A stretch of DNA of 31,111 bases from a virus. Lineage: Duplodnaviria; Heunggongvirae; Uroviricota; Caudoviricetes. The position numbers and the translations under genes were made by a program. The notes under the pieces were generated by a model. The model worked only from the letters and a program-made list of their open reading frames with translations. It made no database searches and was not told the DNA's origin. Each line of letters opens with the position of its first letter. The stretch's first letter is position 1. Shown here piece by piece: positions 1 through 14,562 of this stretch. The stretch is from the IMG/VR virus record IMGVR_UViG_2563366800_000008; one strand, written 5' to 3'.

Positions 1-1128
1 TTATGCCGCCAGCACGCGGTTGCGTCCATCATTTTTCGCCCGATACAAAGCATCATCAACGCGTTTAAACAGTTCATCGATGCTTTCATTTCCTTCGTGA
101 TGCGCCACACCAATGCTGACGGTAAAGCGTGGTAAGCCCGAAATACTCACTTTTGCCACGCTTACGCGGATAGTTTCAGCCAGCGAAAGCGCGGTATCCA
201 GTGGGGTTCTTGGTAGCAATAAGACAAACTCTTCGCCTCCCCAACGAAACACCAAATCGCCTTTGCGAGCGCAACTTTCGAGGGTGCGGGCGAGGGCGCA
301 TAACACCTCATCACCTTTAGAATGCCCATAGAGATCGTTAATGTGTTTAAAACGATCGGTGTCGATGAGCAACAAGCTGTAATCCTGAGCGATGGCGAGA
401 TGCTGCATTTGGCCTGGTTCCGTAATGTGATAAAACTGTCGCCGATTCAGTAATCCGGTCATCGCGTCATGGTGAGCAGCATGTTCCAGCTGCTCCTCCA
501 GCCGTTTTTGCTCAGTAATATCATGCACAATACATAACATGAGCTTGTCGCCATAAATTTCAATCGGTCCGGCATAGGTCTGCACATGACGAGTCGAACC
601 ATCCGCCAGTTTATGAACAAAATTCAAAGGTTTATGACCACCGGGTAAATGCGAGATTTCATGCATGATAGGCATGACGCGACGCCCGAGCATATTTATT
701 TCCCAGGTATGTTTCTGGCACATCGTTTCATGGTTATAACCATAGAAATTGAGCGCGGCGAGGTTAGCATCGACGATTTGTCCATCTCGTGACGGGTCAA
801 TCAACAACATTGGTGCAGAGTTAGTCAGAAAAAAGCGCGCATAAAAACCTTGTTTTTTGCGCTGATAATTTGCCGAGCGACTGGCTTTTAAACCCAGCGT
901 TGCCGGCGCTTCGATACCTTCGAAAATAATCACCGGTTCTGTTTCTGTCAGCTTTCGCAAAACAAGCCGACAGCTCAATGCTGTTTCCTCTTCTTTACGC
1001 TGAACAGTGAGGATTTCGATAATATCGTGTTGGTTTTGCAGATCGGAGAGGTATTTCGGCAGTTCTTTTTGTGAGGAGACGGAATAGGGTCCGGTTCGTA
1101 GCTGACTAAACGTGAGGTCTTGCATCAA
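1..1128 (-). CDS. dgcM: Host PAS-GGDEF diguanylate cyclase; 5' end interrupted by the prophage
   Basis: 375-aa ORF with GGEEF active-site motif (RWGGEEFVLLL) and PAS-like N-terminal region; stop codon at 1-3. Reading frame stays open upstream to a TAG at 1213-1215 and encodes SLDLLTSPVWIVSPFEEQLIYANSAAKLL, which matches my recollection of the DgcM/YdaM N-terminus. No in-frame start before that; first in-window ATG is at 1123-1125 (ORF track begins at a TTG). Confidence 0.8.
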   Translation of the reverse strand: MMQDLTFSQLRTGPYSVSSQKELPKYLSDLQNQHDIIEILTVQRKEEETALSCRLVLRKLTETEPVIIFEGIEAPATLGLKASRSANYQRKKQGFYARFFLTNSAPMLLIDPSRDGQIVDANLAALNFYGYNHETMCQKHTWEINMLGRRVMPIMHEISHLPGGHKPLNFVHKLADGSTRHVQTYAGPIEIYGDKLMLCIVHDITEQKRLEEQLEHAAHHDAMTGLLNRRQFYHITEPGQMQHLAIAQDYSLLLIDTDRFKHINDLYGHSKGDEVLCALARTLESCARKGDLVFRWGGEEFVLLLPRTPLDTALSLAETIRVSVAKVSISGLPRFTVSIGVAHHEGNESIDELFKRVDDALYRAKNDGRNRVLAA

Positions 1129-1248
1129 CAGTTTCGCCGCGCTATTGGCATAAATTAACTGTTCCTCAAAGGGCGAAACGATCCAGACAGGACTGGTGAG
1201 TAAGTCCAGTGACTAGTGACAGTGATGTATGGATCAAACAGAGAACCC

Positions 1249-1288
1249 GGGAATAACCGGGAATTCATGGGAATTAACGGGAGGAAGG
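1249..1288. repeat. Four tandem 10-bp units GGGAATAACC / GGGAATTCAT / GGGAATTAAC / GGGAGGAAGG near the prophage left end
   Basis: Directly visible head-to-tail repeat with 10-bp period, about 40 bp inside the inferred terminus. Position fits transposase end-binding sites (attL). Confidence 0.5.
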
Positions 1289-1506
1289 CTTGAGTTGTGA
1301 GGCTTCGCACAACGTTAAGCTACTCGACTTGTGGAAAATCTGGCATATCGTCAATTTTGGATCATTCGATAGCGAAGCCAGTTAAGTGTCACATAGATTT
1401 GGATCGTATAGCAGTTAATTTCAAAGCGTTTAACGGGATTTAAACTCAGCTTAAAATGCCCACAGGAGGTGCGAAGGTAAAGCCAGCCAATTGAGCACTT
1501 TTGCAA

Positions 1507-2106
1507 TCAGCCAGCTTTATTTCGCGTGCTCAGCTTCGGCGCGGCTTGAATCTGTTCATTGGGATCACGTTGTTCAAAAATCTCTCTATCTGCACTGGCT
1601 TCCAAATCAGCTACCATCGGCATTAAAGCGTTCAGCCCACCTTGCATGAAAACCTTAATAACATACTGTTTTTGACGCTCTGTTAAGTTGTCGAAAAGCA
1701 TTATCCATAGGTCCCGAGCTGTTGAGCTTGGTGACGATAAGGCTGAGTCAGGTATAACTGAGCGCTCTTCTACCCCCAAGAATTTCTTTGTTTCTTCTGG
1801 CAAGACCGATACATGATATTCATATGCTTTCGATTTAGCCTTCTTACGTTTCAACTTAGGATTATTACTCACAAGTTGTTCCAGTTTCCGCCGGACATTC
1901 GGCGCTCCACTGGGGAAACCTGGTAGACCAATACAATCCTGAACTGACACCCATTCACTAAAATCAACCATATCATTCACCGTACTTTTCTGTGTTATTG
2001 AAAAATACATCTGGTACTTTTTTGTGATTAACCACGGAAAATCAAGTAACGAATTGATTTTAAATAAAATATCATGGTTAACCTCATCAACCATAAAAGT
2101 ACGCAA
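1507..2106 (-). CDS. c: Mu c-type repressor (winged-helix DNA-binding)
   Basis: 199-aa ORF transcribed away from the early operon, at the left end as in Mu. Segment GGLNALMPMV resembles the Mu repressor as I recall it. ORF-track start is a TTG at 2104-2106; first ATG is at 2092-2094, so the true start is uncertain. Confidence 0.7.
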   Translation of the reverse strand: MRTFMVDEVNHDILFKINSLLDFPWLITKKYQMYFSITQKSTVNDMVDFSEWVSVQDCIGLPGFPSGAPNVRRKLEQLVSNNPKLKRKKAKSKAYEYHVSVLPEETKKFLGVEERSVIPDSALSSPSSTARDLWIMLFDNLTERQKQYVIKVFMQGGLNALMPMVADLEASADREIFEQRDPNEQIQAAPKLSTRNKAG

Positions 2107-2200: not shown

Positions 2201-2437
2201 ATGATGACCAAAAGCCAAGACTGGCACCCGGAAGACATCAAAGCAGCGATTAGGAAACGTGGGATGACTACCAGTCAGCTCTCCAGAAGCAACGGATTAG
2301 CGGAATCAACATTACGAAATGTATTCCGCCACCACTGGCCGAAAGGGGAAAAAATTATTGCTGAGTTTCTGGGGCTTACCCCCAGAGATATTTGGCCCTC
2401 ACGTTATGAAGCTGTATCAGTCAAAGAGGTTGCATAA
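2201..2437 (+). CDS. ner: Ner-like DNA-binding transcriptional regulator
   Basis: 78-aa ORF; HHWPKGEKIIAEFLGLTPRDIWPSRY resembles Mu Ner. AAGGA Shine-Dalgarno 7 nt upstream. Stop overlaps the transposase start (TAATG). Confidence 0.85.
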   Translation: MMTKSQDWHPEDIKAAIRKRGMTTSQLSRSNGLAESTLRNVFRHHWPKGEKIIAEFLGLTPRDIWPSRYEAVSVKEVA

Positions 2438-4419
2438 TGGATTTCTGGGTTACCGCAAAAGAATGCGTAGGAATTTGTTCTTTTCCTAATGCAGAAAAGA
2501 ACGTCAGAAAACATTTGGAGTCTTTTGTCAGTGGACGTAGTGAACTACGCCGTAAACGTGCTGGCACCAAAGCATTCGAATACCACATATCGGTGTTGCC
2601 ACCTGAAGTCCGCGCTGAACTGCTGGCCGCACGTGGCCTGATTGAAACATCATCCGGGCTGATTACATTGCCACAGGAGCCTGAGCGCGTGGCGGCTGAC
2701 GATCTGGAACGCCAGCGACTGTGGTCTGCATGGGAGAAAGCTACCGGCGAGCAGCGTCTGCATGCAGAACGCCGGACTAAAGCTGCCGCGCTGGTGGCGG
2801 AACTGATGGCTTCCGGCATCGGCAATCGTAAGGCGATCACGCTGGCAGCAAAACAGCTGCAAATCAGTGAAGGTACGCTGCGCAATCTTTACTACAAAGT
2901 CAAAGACCATAGTCCTGACCTCTGGGGTCCGGTACTGCTTGACCGCCGTGTGCGTGAAAAACGTCAGACTGGCCGGACTGCCGATATCTCTGAAGATGCC
3001 TGGCAGTTCTTCCTGGGCGATTATCTGCGAAACGAAGCGCCGTTCTTCTCCAAAAGCTATGAGCGCCTTGAAAAGGCGGCAGATGCTCATGGCTGGATTA
3101 TTCCCGCTGAGCGCACTCTGCGCCGCAAGCTAGAACGTGAAGTTGATCCGCGTATCGTCGTTGCCACCCGTGAGGGCGAGAACGCGCTGGCGCAGATGTA
3201 TCCGTCGCAGCAGCGCACCGTGGCATATCTTCATGCGATGGAGTGGATCAATGGCGACGGTTACCAGCACAACGTGTTTGTCCGTTGGTTTAACGGCGAC
3301 ATCATCCGTCCTAAAACGTGGTTCTGGCAGGATGTCCACAGTCGCAAAATTATTGGCTGGCGTGCTGATTTGTCGGAGAACAGTGACAGCATCCGTTTAT
3401 CCCTGATGGATACCATCCGCGCTTACGGTAAGCCTAAACATGTGACCATCGATAACACCCGCGCTGCTGCAAATAAATGGCTGTCCGGTGGCGTTCCTAA
3501 CCGTTACCGCTTCAAAGTCAAACCTGATGACCCGATGGGGATCATCCCTCTGCTGGGAATGAAGCTGCACTGGACGGGGGTGATTGGCGGTAAGGGCTGG
3601 GGACAGGCAAAGCCCGTTGAACGTGCCTTCGGCGTGGGCGGTCTGGGCGAATATATCGACAAACATCCTGCGCTGGCTGGAGCATTTGCCGGTGAAAACG
3701 TCAGCTCCAAGCCAGAGAACTACGGCAGCCTGGCGGTGGATGTGGATACATTCCTGGAAACCATCAGCGAAGGTGTCGCCATGTTCAACGCGAAGGCCGG
3801 GCGCGAGACCGAGATGTGCCGGGGGGAACTGTCCTTCGACCAGGCGTTTGAGCGCAGCTACAGCCAGTCAGTCATCACCCGTATGACCGAAGAGCAAATT
3901 CGTCAACTGATGCTGCCTGCGGAAGCTGTACGCGTGAAGACTACAGGCGAATTTACGATGGAGTGCGGGGGCTCGTTATTTGGCCGTAAGAATACTTACT
4001 GGAGTGAACAGCTCGTCAGCCACCGCTCGCGCAAAATCACCGTCCGGTTTGATCCAAGGAACCTGCACGGAGAAGTCGCCTGTTATGACCTCGACGGCCG
4101 TTTCCTTTGCATGGCTGAGTGTCGTGCCGCCGTGGCCTTTGGCGATACCGAGGCTGGACGTGAACACAACCGTGCACGCCGCGAGATGATCAAGAGTACG
4201 AAGAAAGCGACTAAGGCTCTGAACCGTATGACGGCGATTGAGGTGAATGACCTGCTGCCGAAGACTGAGCATGCAGAACTGCCGGAGCGGCATGTGGTGG
4301 AGCGTGTATTTACCCTGGGCAACACCGTCAAGCGCGTGGAGGACATACAGGAAACGCAGAGCGAAAACGACGTTATTTTCCAGCAGTTTGTTAATAAGGC
4401 TAAACAGGCACGGAAATAA
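2437..4419 (+). CDS. A: MuA-type DDE transposase
   Basis: 660-aa ORF directly after ner. N-terminal region resembles the repressor DNA-binding domain, as in MuA/c. Size and position match MuA. Confidence 0.9.
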   Translation: MDFWVTAKECVGICSFPNAEKNVRKHLESFVSGRSELRRKRAGTKAFEYHISVLPPEVRAELLAARGLIETSSGLITLPQEPERVAADDLERQRLWSAWEKATGEQRLHAERRTKAAALVAELMASGIGNRKAITLAAKQLQISEGTLRNLYYKVKDHSPDLWGPVLLDRRVREKRQTGRTADISEDAWQFFLGDYLRNEAPFFSKSYERLEKAADAHGWIIPAERTLRRKLEREVDPRIVVATREGENALAQMYPSQQRTVAYLHAMEWINGDGYQHNVFVRWFNGDIIRPKTWFWQDVHSRKIIGWRADLSENSDSIRLSLMDTIRAYGKPKHVTIDNTRAAANKWLSGGVPNRYRFKVKPDDPMGIIPLLGMKLHWTGVIGGKGWGQAKPVERAFGVGGLGEYIDKHPALAGAFAGENVSSKPENYGSLAVDVDTFLETISEGVAMFNAKAGRETEMCRGELSFDQAFERSYSQSVITRMTEEQIRQLMLPAEAVRVKTTGEFTMECGGSLFGRKNTYWSEQLVSHRSRKITVRFDPRNLHGEVACYDLDGRFLCMAECRAAVAFGDTEAGREHNRARREMIKSTKKATKALNRMTAIEVNDLLPKTEHAELPERHVVERVFTLGNTVKRVEDIQETQSENDVIFQQFVNKAKQARK

Positions 4420-12143: not shown

Positions 12144-12414
12144 AGCCCTTAAGCCACTGAGCAGCAGCCAGCGCGACATCATCCGGAAAATGGCCGCCAT
12201 TCTCGTCTGTGCGGAAATTGAAGTCAGAGCCATTGCACCGCAGTTTGAAAAATCGACGGGTAAAAAATACAACTCCGAATCCGCTGATTCGTATCTGAAC
12301 ACATTCCTCAACAGCAACCCGGAATACAAACGCGTCTGGAAGTTGCTGCTGAAAGACAAATCCAGCGTTGAACGTGACTTCCTTGAACGTATGAGGAGGG
12401 AGAATGGCAAGTGA
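12136..12414 (+). CDS. Hypothetical protein
   Basis: ATG 12136 inside ORF 12115..12414, overlapping the previous stop by 8 nt. Confidence 0.45.
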   Translation: MTKALKPLSSSQRDIIRKMAAILVCAEIEVRAIAPQFEKSTGKKYNSESADSYLNTFLNSNPEYKRVWKLLLKDKSSVERDFLERMRRENGK

Positions 12415-12982
12415 ACGCCAGACGCGCGGACGACCCTCAAAGATTGATTTGCTCCCGGATGCGGTCCGGGAGCAACTTCATCAGATGCTGCGCGACAAAC
12501 GACATACCCAGGAAGAAATCCGCGAAGCGATTAACGAGCTGATCAACGAATATAACCTTCCGGAGGACATGCAAATCAGCCGTACCGGTCTGAACCGCTA
12601 CGCAAGCCGCATGGAAACGATGGGGTCAAAGATTCGCGCTTCACGCGAGATGGCTGAAATATGGGCATCAAAACTTGGCTCAGCGCCGACGTCTGACGTC
12701 GGAAAATTACTGCTGGAGTTTGTCAAAACACTGGCCTTTGAAACCTCAATGGAAATGGCTGACAGCGATAAAACTGTCGAACCAAAAGCGCTGGGCCAGC
12801 TTGCGCTTGTCGCCCAGCGACTGGAAGCCGCAGCGATGGCAAGCCACAAACGCGAGAAAGAAATCCAGCAGGAGTTTGCGAAAAAAGCCGCTGCGGCCGC
12901 AGAGACCATAACCCGTTCTGCTGGTCTGTCTGCTGAGACGGCGGCTGATATCAAACGTCAGATTCTGGGGATTGCAGAATGA
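12404..12982 (+). CDS. Terminase small-subunit-like protein (Mu gp27 family)
   Basis: 192-aa ORF directly before the large terminase; N-terminus RGRPSKIDLLPDAVREQL resembles Mu gp27 as recalled. Confidence 0.7.
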   Translation: MASERQTRGRPSKIDLLPDAVREQLHQMLRDKRHTQEEIREAINELINEYNLPEDMQISRTGLNRYASRMETMGSKIRASREMAEIWASKLGSAPTSDVGKLLLEFVKTLAFETSMEMADSDKTVEPKALGQLALVAQRLEAAAMASHKREKEIQQEFAKKAAAAAETITRSAGLSAETAADIKRQILGIAE

Positions 12983-14562
12983 CGACGATGACGCCGGACA
13001 GAACACTCACCAGTCAGTCCGCTGCGGCTATCCTGTCGGGCGAGTTCGACAAAAGCCAGCTACTGCTTCCCTACCAGAAGCGGTGGATTGCCGACTCCTC
13101 TCAACTGAAGATTGCCGAGAAGTCGCGTCGTACCGGTCTGACCTGGGCGGAAGCCGCTGACGCGGCCCTCAACGGCTCAATGTCGGTGGAGGCCGGTGGG
13201 TGCGACACATTCTACGTCGGCACAACGAAAGACATGGCCCGTGAGTTTATTGATGCCTGTGCCATGTGGGCGAAAGCCTATGACCGCGCCGCGTCTGGCA
13301 TTGGTGAAGAAGTGCTGAAGGATGAAGACAAAGACATCCTGGTCTATGTCATCCAGTTCGCCAGTGGCTACAAAATCAAGGCGCTGTCGTCTAACCCGTC
13401 GAACCTGCGTGGTATGCAGGGTAACGTCATCATTGATGAGGCCGCATTCCAGGCTGACCTTGCAGCGGTACTCAAGGCGGCGCTGGCGCTGACAATGTGG
13501 GGGAATAATGTTCGCCTTATTTCCACTCACAACGGTATTGATAACCTGTTTAACACCATCATCACCGACAGCCGGGCCGGGAAAAAACGCTACTCTGTCC
13601 ATCACGTCGATATTGAAACGGCCATTGCAGAGGGGCTGTATCAGCGCATCTGTCAGGTTACAAAAAAAGTCTGGTCTGTGGAGGCCGAAGCGGAATGGCT
13701 GGCTAACCTGCTGAGCGACACGGCCACAGAGGAAGATGCCCGCGAGGAATACTACTGCGAGCCGAAGAACGGCGGTGGCGTCTATATCGCACGTTCCCTG
13801 CGCGAACGTGCGGCCAGAGGTCCGACCGTTGTCCTGCGCTTCACCGGTACGGCTGATTTTAACGCGATGCCGGACGGACTGCGCCGTGTGGAAATGCAGG
13901 AATGGCTGGAGACGGTCGTACTACCCGAACTGGAGAAGCTGCCGCAGAACCTGCGCCACTGTCTGGGGGAGGACTTTGCGCGTAATGGTGACCTGACCGT
14001 GTTTGCACCGGTGACAGTCAACGATGACACGACGCGCAACGTCCCGTTCCTGGTGGAACTCAGCAATGTGCCATTTAAACAGCAGGAGCAGGCGCTGTTT
14101 TATATCTGTGACAGGCTTCCCCGCCGTGACGGCATCAAGCTCGATGCGCGGGGTAACGGTCAGTATCTGGCAGAACAGGCGGCGGAAAAATACGGTGATG
14201 AAGTTGAGCAGGTGCAGCTTTCCGTCAAATACTACCGGGAGAACATGCCACGGTTCCGTGCGGCATTCGAAGACAATGAGCTGGTACTGCCAAAGCATGA
14301 AGATGTGATCACAGACCTCGGCGCAATTCAGCTTTATCGCGGCGTACCGGGCATTGATGATGCACGAACTACCGGCACCGATGGCCGCAAGCGTCACGGT
14401 GACTCTGCTATCGCTATTTTTCTCGGTTTCCTCGCCAGTCGCGAGGACTGCCGCCGTTATGAAGTCCACAAGTTAAAGAAACCTTCCCGCCCCGATGAGC
14501 GTAATGAACACCGTCAGGTCCGCATCACACGGGGTCTTAAAAATCAGCGGGGATTACTCTGA
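12979..14562 (+). CDS. Terminase large subunit (Mu gp28-like)
   Basis: 527-aa ORF, the size and position of Mu gp28; acidic nuclease-like C-terminal half. Confidence 0.85.
   Translation: MTTMTPDRTLTSQSAAAILSGEFDKSQLLLPYQKRWIADSSQLKIAEKSRRTGLTWAEAADAALNGSMSVEAGGCDTFYVGTTKDMAREFIDACAMWAKAYDRAASGIGEEVLKDEDKDILVYVIQFASGYKIKALSSNPSNLRGMQGNVIIDEAAFQADLAAVLKAALALTMWGNNVRLISTHNGIDNLFNTIITDSRAGKKRYSVHHVDIETAIAEGLYQRICQVTKKVWSVEAEAEWLANLLSDTATEEDAREEYYCEPKNGGGVYIARSLRERAARGPTVVLRFTGTADFNAMPDGLRRVEMQEWLETVVLPELEKLPQNLRHCLGEDFARNGDLTVFAPVTVNDDTTRNVPFLVELSNVPFKQQEQALFYICDRLPRRDGIKLDARGNGQYLAEQAAEKYGDEVEQVQLSVKYYRENMPRFRAAFEDNELVLPKHEDVITDLGAIQLYRGVPGIDDARTTGTDGRKRHGDSAIAIFLGFLASREDCRRYEVHKLKKPSRPDERNEHRQVRITRGLKNQRGLL

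Follow-up and report, generated by a model that had tools for sequence, protein, structure and literature searches.

The locus considered here raises a simple question: what reads the four short repeats that lie just inside one end of a Mu-like prophage, and for what process? The window (the whole stretch of DNA that was analysed, 31,111 nucleotides) carries them at 1249-1288 on the plus strand, where the sequence is GGGAATAACC GGGAATTCAT GGGAATTAAC GGGAGGAAGG. A preliminary description had reported four head-to-tail 10-bp units that open with GGGA, three of them with GGGAAT, and the sequence, Tandem Repeats Finder (3.5 copies of period 10 at 1248-1282) and an array score all agree with it. 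This score counts the matches to GGGA at four positions spaced 10 bp apart, (GGGA-N6)x4, with a maximum of 16 and with both strands scanned. The array reaches 16/16, the sole 16 in the window, and elsewhere in the prophage, shifted registers of the array aside, just one position exceeds 12/16, with a score of 13. In 100 dinucleotide shuffles of the whole window the best score is at most 12 in 68 cases, 13 in 21 and 14 in two, and none is above 14. Because the shuffles never exceed 14 and the array has 16/16, we take it to be real and not a product of chance. The longer pattern GGGAAT-N4-GGGAAT occurs twice in the window, both times in the array, where 0.16 occurrences are expected and 0 of 100 shuffles reach two. 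The period of one helical turn places the units on the same DNA face, which fits a multimeric protein as had been proposed, and positions that played no part in the selection are kept in 38 non-redundant arrays, to which we return below.

We consider the boundaries of the element. Homology to the host gene dgcM, followed in 5,389 E. coli genomes, stops at window position 1209, and in three genomes that carry the same prophage at other insertion sites the matching starts at 1210 (TGACTAGTGACAG...). With the left end placed there, the array occupies nt 40-79 of the element, which bears out the earlier estimate of its distance from the terminus (about 40 bp). The right end lies outside the window, and its sequence is taken from one of the genomes with the same prophage (L001), in which the element spans 988-33303 and has the 5-bp target duplication ACGGT at both junctions; this copy shows 59 differences from the copy in the window over 29,902 positions. 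The interrupted dgcM gene (a diguanylate cyclase, minus strand, window 1-1209) has its 5' part split from the remainder by the prophage, and the strain is probably without a functional DgcM. On the inner side, the repressor gene forms the boundary of a non-coding left-end region of 297 bp. The element also encodes a Ner-like protein, MuB, Mor, and Mu-type head and tail genes. The features that matter for the argument are collected in Table 1.

Table 1. Features of the left end and candidate reader genes (window coordinates)
Feature	Position	Strand	Basis or remark
Left terminus (TG) of the Mu-like prophage	1210..1211	+	host/prophage match boundaries
L1, terminal transposase-binding word (predicted), TGACAGTGATGTATGGATCA	1217..1236	+	exact TGACA-N8-TGGATCR
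Four 10-bp units of the array	starts 1249, 1259, 1269, 1279	+	GGGA opens each
Small inverted repeat GTTGTG-AGGCTTCG-CACAAC around a GGCTT word	1294..1313	.	just 3' of the array
Candidate L2, TCAATTTTGGATCATTCGATAGCGAAGC	1351..1378	+	TGGATCA half-word (~1358-1364) and Mu-like AGCGAAG
L3, transposase-binding word (predicted), TGTCACATAGATTTGGATCG	1387..1406	+	1 mismatch; equals L001 1165-1184
Mu-type repressor gene	1507..2106	-	ORF list; Pfam HTH_Tnp_Mu_1, E 3e-08
MuA-type transposase	2437..4419	+	Pfam HTH_Tnp_Mu_1, HTH_Tnp_Mu_2, DDE_2, Mu-transpos_C
Small gp26-like protein, possible winged helix	11473..11766	+	phrog_436; weak Pfam winged-helix match
Gp27-family small terminase subunit (putative)	12404..12982	+	PF11985, E 5.7e-57; phrog_426 'terminase small subunit', E 1e-68
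Large terminase subunit	12979..14562	+	Pfam Terminase_6N; L001 annotation 'terminase large subunit domain-containing protein'

The sites of the transposase can be located by a left-end alignment of the element with a 74%-identical E. coli relative (L002), elements of Phytobacter, Kluyvera, Sodalis and Apirhabdus, and Mu. The alignment reveals the element's own end-word, TGACA-N8-TGGATCR, whose exact or one-mismatch copies in 42 kb are limited to L1, L3 and, in inverted orientation, the right end. The first 30 bp of the element are identical in L002. The half-word at candidate L2, which has no exact match to the pattern, is likely to be L2 itself, and TTAGATCA/TTGGATCA is kept at this column in ECONIH5, Phytobacter and Kluyvera. 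The array falls between L1 and L2/L3. At the right end (L001 coordinates) two copies of the end-word face each other, an exact one at 33255-33274 on the minus strand and one with two mismatches at 33229-33248 on the plus strand, and the latter, with its opposite orientation, resembles Mu R3. The outermost 27 bp of the right end (reverse complement TGCCGCGCGCCAATCAAAACGCGACAC) we take to be similar to Mu R1 (TGAAGCGGCGCACGAAAAACGCGAAAG).

The next question is how this arrangement compares with that of Mu. Nucleotides 33-72 of Mu read GGGAGGACAT TGGATTATTC GGGATCTGAT GGGATTAGAT, directly after L1 and before L2, with GGGA at nt 33, 53 and 63 and TGGA at nt 43. When Mu is aligned to the element, the columns without variation cluster in the GGGA words of units 1, 3 and 4 rather than in L1. 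The two left ends (attL in Mu) share the place of the array, its strand, the 10-bp period, the four units, the GGGA word and the restriction to the left end; they differ in that the units are cleaner here (4/4 with GGGA, 3/4 with GGGAAT) and in the flanking transposase words. The start at nt 40, against nt 33 in Mu, is explained by L1, which lies further in here. Since the same four-unit 10-bp array is present in Mu, the repeats are no departure from Mu; the feature is the counterpart of the presumed pac/spacer segment of Mu and is ordinary for the window alone. Among the cognate genes, Gp27 has 44% identity to that of Mu (tblastn) and the MuA-type transposase 51%. Packaging of Mu starts at the left side and takes in 50-150 bp of host DNA there (PMC5977238), and a paper on the mapping of the Mu packaging site (Groenen and van de Putte 1985) is listed by its title among the references of PMC5418689. 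Our literature searches for the coordinates of Mu pac yielded this title and the statements on the HU spacer discussed below, and no text giving coordinates. Groenen and van de Putte reportedly placed Mu pac in 1985 at about nt 35-58 of the left end, and Harel et al. are said to have refined it in 1990 to nt 32-54. These would presumably be units 1 and 2 of the Mu array.

Conservation beyond Mu was followed through the proteins, as the left-end 295 bp have no blastn match among 50,697 phage records; window 1100-1600 matches no Rfam family. The scan of transposase relatives (37-70% identity) covers 80 loci from Enterobacterales, Vibrio, Aeromonas, Pasteurellaceae, Shewanella, Rheinheimera and others. 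Exact (GGGA-N6) runs of at least three units are present in 8 of these loci, all of them upstream of the transposase and on the inward strand, and none elsewhere. For the 69 loci whose upstream sequence extends over 1.4 kb or more, we defined a left-end zone that makes up 8% of the positions. The best (GGGA-N6)x4 match of the whole locus, on either strand, lies in this zone in 55 of the 69, and the positions with a score of at least 14/16 number 46 inside the zone and 0 outside. Wherever the terminus can be verified, the array starts 31-46 nt from it and reads inward: besides the starts given for this element and Mu, these are nt 32 in the Klebsiella element Kp4866-3, nt 40 in Vibrio phage 1.159.O and in contig L029, nt 45 in B3 and nt 46 in BcepMu. 

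The bases are conserved as well as the spacing. In the 38 non-redundant arrays, position 4 is A in 97%, position 5 is A or T in 85% and position 7 is A or T in 97%, so that positions 4-7 are A/T-rich; among the positions that were not selected for, A occupies position 7 in 71% of the arrays and C in none, a pyrimidine stands at position 10 in 100%, and T at position 30 in 76%. The unit consensus is roughly YGGGAWnArrY. Variant words are also found in a 10-bp array directly after the terminal site, namely GGGTT in Pusillimonas, Bordetella and Billgrantia, and a GTGTTA/GGTTA array in one Vibrio element, yet the L1 of the latter matches that of Vibrio elements with GGGATC arrays. These variants come from the left-end zones of L052, L058, L060, L067 and L066, loci that end before the terminase genes, and the record of Chromohalobacter phage YPCBV-1 begins inside the left end and is uninformative for co-variation of word and terminase. 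A change of word at unchanged period and place looks like co-evolution with a sequence-specific reader, as far as the comparison of sequences can tell. Within Mu-like left ends the phased YGGGAW array is the best-conserved feature, and this comparative result is possibly under-described in the literature.

If the word follows a reader, the presence of the array should follow one too, and we turn to complete or near-complete genomes in which both the transposase and the small terminase can be classed with Pfam. Arrays of 14-16/16 are found at the left end of genomes that combine a MuA-type transposase with a Gp27-type small terminase: this element, Mu, two Vibrio phages, Alteromonadaceae phage B23, Ochrobactrum phage POA1180 and Microcystis phage Mwe-Yong1. 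The Gp27-type carriers include three other transposase/end-word classes. Klebsiella Kp4866-3 has the D3112 architecture (HTH_Tnp_Mu_1, rve and Mu-transpos_C), the end-word ATTTGATAC and an array of 15/16; B3 and BcepMu have an rve-only transposase without the Mu HTH domains, an inverted early region, the end-word GCGCGATAWWT in both, and arrays of 14/16 that are the top match genome-wide. The D3112 architecture is combined with a DUF1804 protein (PF08822) in JBD88a, RcapMu, Klebsiella Kp4852-3 and Ralstonia YO044_1, and these four have no array: their best match is 11-13/16 and never at an end, and the first 200 bp of JBD88a and RcapMu contain no GGGA array and no obvious array of 10-11-bp period. 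Left-end arrays that score 14/16 or higher are thus present in 10 of 13 informative Gp27-type genomes and in 0 of 4 of the DUF1804 type (one-sided Fisher ~0.015, with no phylogenetic correction and four Gp27-negative lineages sampled). In the Gp27-type genomes it is the top genome-wide match in the nine that were scanned whole, Mu being scanned at its two ends only. The other three Gp27-type phages have degenerate arrays (Pasteurella AFS-2018a with 2/4 units, StopSmel with 12/16 and Rhodovulum P1 with 10/16). 

This co-occurrence, which is observed directly, also holds in subsets of genomes that can be set side by side. Among G+C-rich genomes the array is present in B3 and BcepMu and missing in JBD88a, RcapMu and Ralstonia YO044_1 (63% G+C). 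Kp4866-3 and Kp4852-3 share the host genus and the transposase architecture and differ in terminase type and in the presence of the array. The DUF1804-type phages (D3112/JBD88a, RcapMu, Kp4852-3) are like the element in lifestyle and in their Mu-type transposase domains, and differ from it by the PF08822 protein in the small-terminase position and by the missing GGGA array; presumably they also package from the left end. Because presence tracks Gp27 and not the class of transposase, the array follows the Gp27-type packaging module. What the correlation identifies is the Mu-type head module, in which Gp27 and the gp26-like gene travel together, and not a single protein.

Some of these genomes deserve a remark. 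Kp4866-3 and the element of the window are mosaic relative to each other: they are 80-87% identical in the late genes (Gp27, the large terminase and the gp26-like gene), with Gp27 at 86% and the gp26-like protein at 87.5%; MuB is 48% identical, and the transposase, of another domain architecture and with another end-word, is 25-36% identical. JBD88a and B3 have nearly identical right ends (TGTAGCGCGGCGCGAAATTTGGCGCGGATTTGCGCAATAAATGACGCG...) within their last 200 bp; their transposase families and left ends differ, and the left end of JBD88a has AAATATYGATC words. The record of Mwe-Yong1 has the look of a rearranged or chimeric sequence: its right end, beside portal and protease genes, holds an inverted left end of the Mu type together with the array, and the opposite end has an integrase and a cox gene.

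Combining the place of the array with its distribution, we arrive at a reading of the array as a Mu-type pac site to which a Gp27 terminase would bind as an oligomer along one face of the DNA, and we give this reading a probability of about 0.6. The array has several features expected of such a site. It is confined to the left end, where it lies between L1 and L2/L3 at a distance of tens of bp from the terminus; the same element encodes Gp27 and a large terminase; and its presence tracks the type of the terminase, not that of the transposase. Elsewhere among phages, pac is usually recognised by the small terminase. The Gp27 gene is located directly upstream of the large terminase gene, and the assignment of Gp27 as the putative small terminase rests on this position together with the family annotation. 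The N-termini of Gp27 proteins have in common RxSK(I/V)xxLP and S(R/K)xx(L/V/F)xR(Y/H), and the latter stretch resembles the recognition helix of an HTH motif. An AlphaFold2 model of Gp27, made with a shallow alignment in which all sequences are at least 71% identical, is mediocre overall (pLDDT 67.9) and has a confident N-terminal helical domain; a Foldseek search of the PDB with this model returned nothing below E = 1.6, and a sequence search found no relative of Gp27 with a solved structure, so that these structural results weigh neither for nor against the reading. The MuA-type transposase is not the reader that we propose for the array.

The following sequence of events can be envisaged. 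During late lytic growth, the Gp27-type small terminase would bind the successive YGGGAW words as an oligomer, possibly assisted at the array by the small gp26-like protein. As the words are one helical turn apart on one face, they could be read by the DNA-binding domains of neighbouring terminase subunits on DNA that would bend readily in a single direction, and the alternation of G-rich and A/T-rich halves of the units would favour wrapping of the DNA. The large terminase would be recruited next and, we infer, would cut the host DNA shortly outside the left end, with the filling of the head proceeding rightwards from the cut. Repeated sites for a small terminase are known from the R-elements of lambda cosB, which act with IHF, and from the pacL boxes of SPP1 on bent DNA. 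The array is like these in having short direct repeats near the start of packaging, an oligomeric small terminase with N-terminal DNA-binding domains as the supposed partner, and DNA bending, which here is a proposal. It differs in setting: cosB and pacL adjoin the terminase genes within concatemers or circular genomes, whereas the array belongs to the end of an integrated transposon, ~11 kb away from the genes for the terminase, between transposase sites and with the proposed cut in host DNA, and there is no sequence similarity between them. Mu is a standard model of transposition, and the recognition of its integrated genome by the terminase is a poorly characterised step. For that step the array offers a conserved motif, four YGGGAW words directly after L1, together with Gp27 as a candidate reader. 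It is also a practical annotation marker for the left end of a Mu-like prophage, its orientation and its terminase type.

The array also lies in a stretch of DNA for which a different role is documented in Mu. HU binds and bends the L1-L2 spacer of Mu in vivo (PMC3145075), exactly the gap in which the array is found, and in Mu genetics the 74-bp L1-L2 spacer is handled as a unit (PMC3820752). The array could therefore be an architectural spacer and nothing else, its phased units bending the L1-L2 gap and HU folding it so that the transposase bound at L1 and that bound at L2/L3 meet; the GGG followed by A/T-rich positions in each unit would, read from the letters, be the classic pattern of anisotropic bending. 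HU has no sequence specificity, yet the bases are kept from alphaproteobacterial to gammaproteobacterial phages, including genomes of 63% G+C. The array is moreover kept in B3 and BcepMu, which have an unrelated rve-only transposase and a different end architecture, and four phages whose transposases are of the Mu type lack it. As the sole function, then, we hold the spacer role to be unlikely. An HU-bent spacer is compatible with a pac site, and the two roles may exist at once. It is tempting to go one step further and see in the 40 bp a shared switch point, at which the HU-folded spacer of the transpososome is also the docking site for a ring of Gp27 terminase. Late binding of the terminase would then block synapsis of the left end, each prophage copy would cease to be a replicating transposon and become a substrate for packaging, and the changes of word to GGGTT or GGTTA would mark switches of terminase specificity that isolate the packaging of co-resident Mu-like phages. 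This is a speculative idea that we regard as doubtful.

The packaging reading with Gp27 as the reader has a close neighbour, in which the reader is a different product of the late module. This could be the gp26-like winged-helix protein alone, or a protein that protects or marks the DNA end that is packaged first and ejected last. In B3 (ORF29) and in B23, the gene directly before Gp27 is annotated as similar to Mu gp26; BcepMu and the Vibrio phages have at that position a small ORF, possibly a gp26-like gene. The high identity of the gp26-like protein in Kp4866-3 illustrates that genes which travel together are inseparable by comparison. No specific evidence speaks against another reader; in favour of Gp27 is the usual division of labour by which the small terminase recognises pac in other phages, and so are the apparently HTH-like N-terminal stretch of Gp27 and the N-terminal helical domain that is predicted with confidence. 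We consider this alternative rather improbable.

We come to the proposal of the preliminary description, that the repeats are binding sites of the transposase with an end-recognition code unlike that of Mu. An array less than 80 bp from the terminus, phased as sites for a multimer often are, made this a natural thought, and the sites of MuA (L1-L3, R1-R3) are likewise short repeated words near the end of an element that are bound by a multimeric protein. The MuA sites, however, are present at both ends in defined orientations and vary with the transposase, and the GGGA array does neither. The units were expected to recur inverted at the right end, and their absence was named beforehand as telling against the proposal; the right end contains a single GGGAAT and no array, with a score of at most 10/16 on either strand, and the right ends of 7 phages score at most 10/16. 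The separate word TGACA-N8-TGGATCR fits both ends in the expected orientations, and the array, restricted to the left end, is not the code. Nor does it lie where Mu has L1-L3, as had been thought, but in the gap between L1 and L2, as the GGGA array of Mu itself does. The array is constant across four end-words and three transposase architectures, kept with unrelated transposases and lost where a Mu-type transposase is combined with another small terminase. That it should be a set of transposase sites is very improbable.

Equally hard to sustain is an intrinsic terminator in units 1-2 that would stop leftward (repressor-strand) transcription from reading through into host DNA: a consensus scan does find CCCGG-TTATTC-CCGGG followed by TTCTCTGTTT on the minus strand at 1261-1246 (1 found, 0.2 expected), but the minimum-energy fold of the minus-strand RNA omits the hairpin and barely beats shuffles (z = -1.96), and neither the Kluyvera nor the Mu array contains the palindrome, so a terminator cannot explain the conserved feature and was rejected.

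Two further elements of the left end should be mentioned. A GGCTT or GGGGCTT word is found 15-25 bp past the array in many loci, often within a small palindrome; in Mu (L003) nt 79-91 are GGGGCTTGCAAGCC, with a GGCTT-type word, and the palindrome is GGCTTGCAAGCC. The inverted repeat with its GGCTT word just 3' of the array possibly belongs to the same site as the array. On the far side of L3, at window 1436-1466, TTTAA(A/C) words follow each other every 11 bp (GTTTAAC GGGA TTTAAAC TCAG CTTAAAA). This 11-bp element is kept in relatives, at ~1712-1745 in L002 and at ~190-225 in Mu, there as TTCAA words, and in L072, L074, L080, L083 and L084 it lies at about -1100 to -1165 from the transposase. 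In several Pasteurellaceae loci it is the best self-periodic feature.
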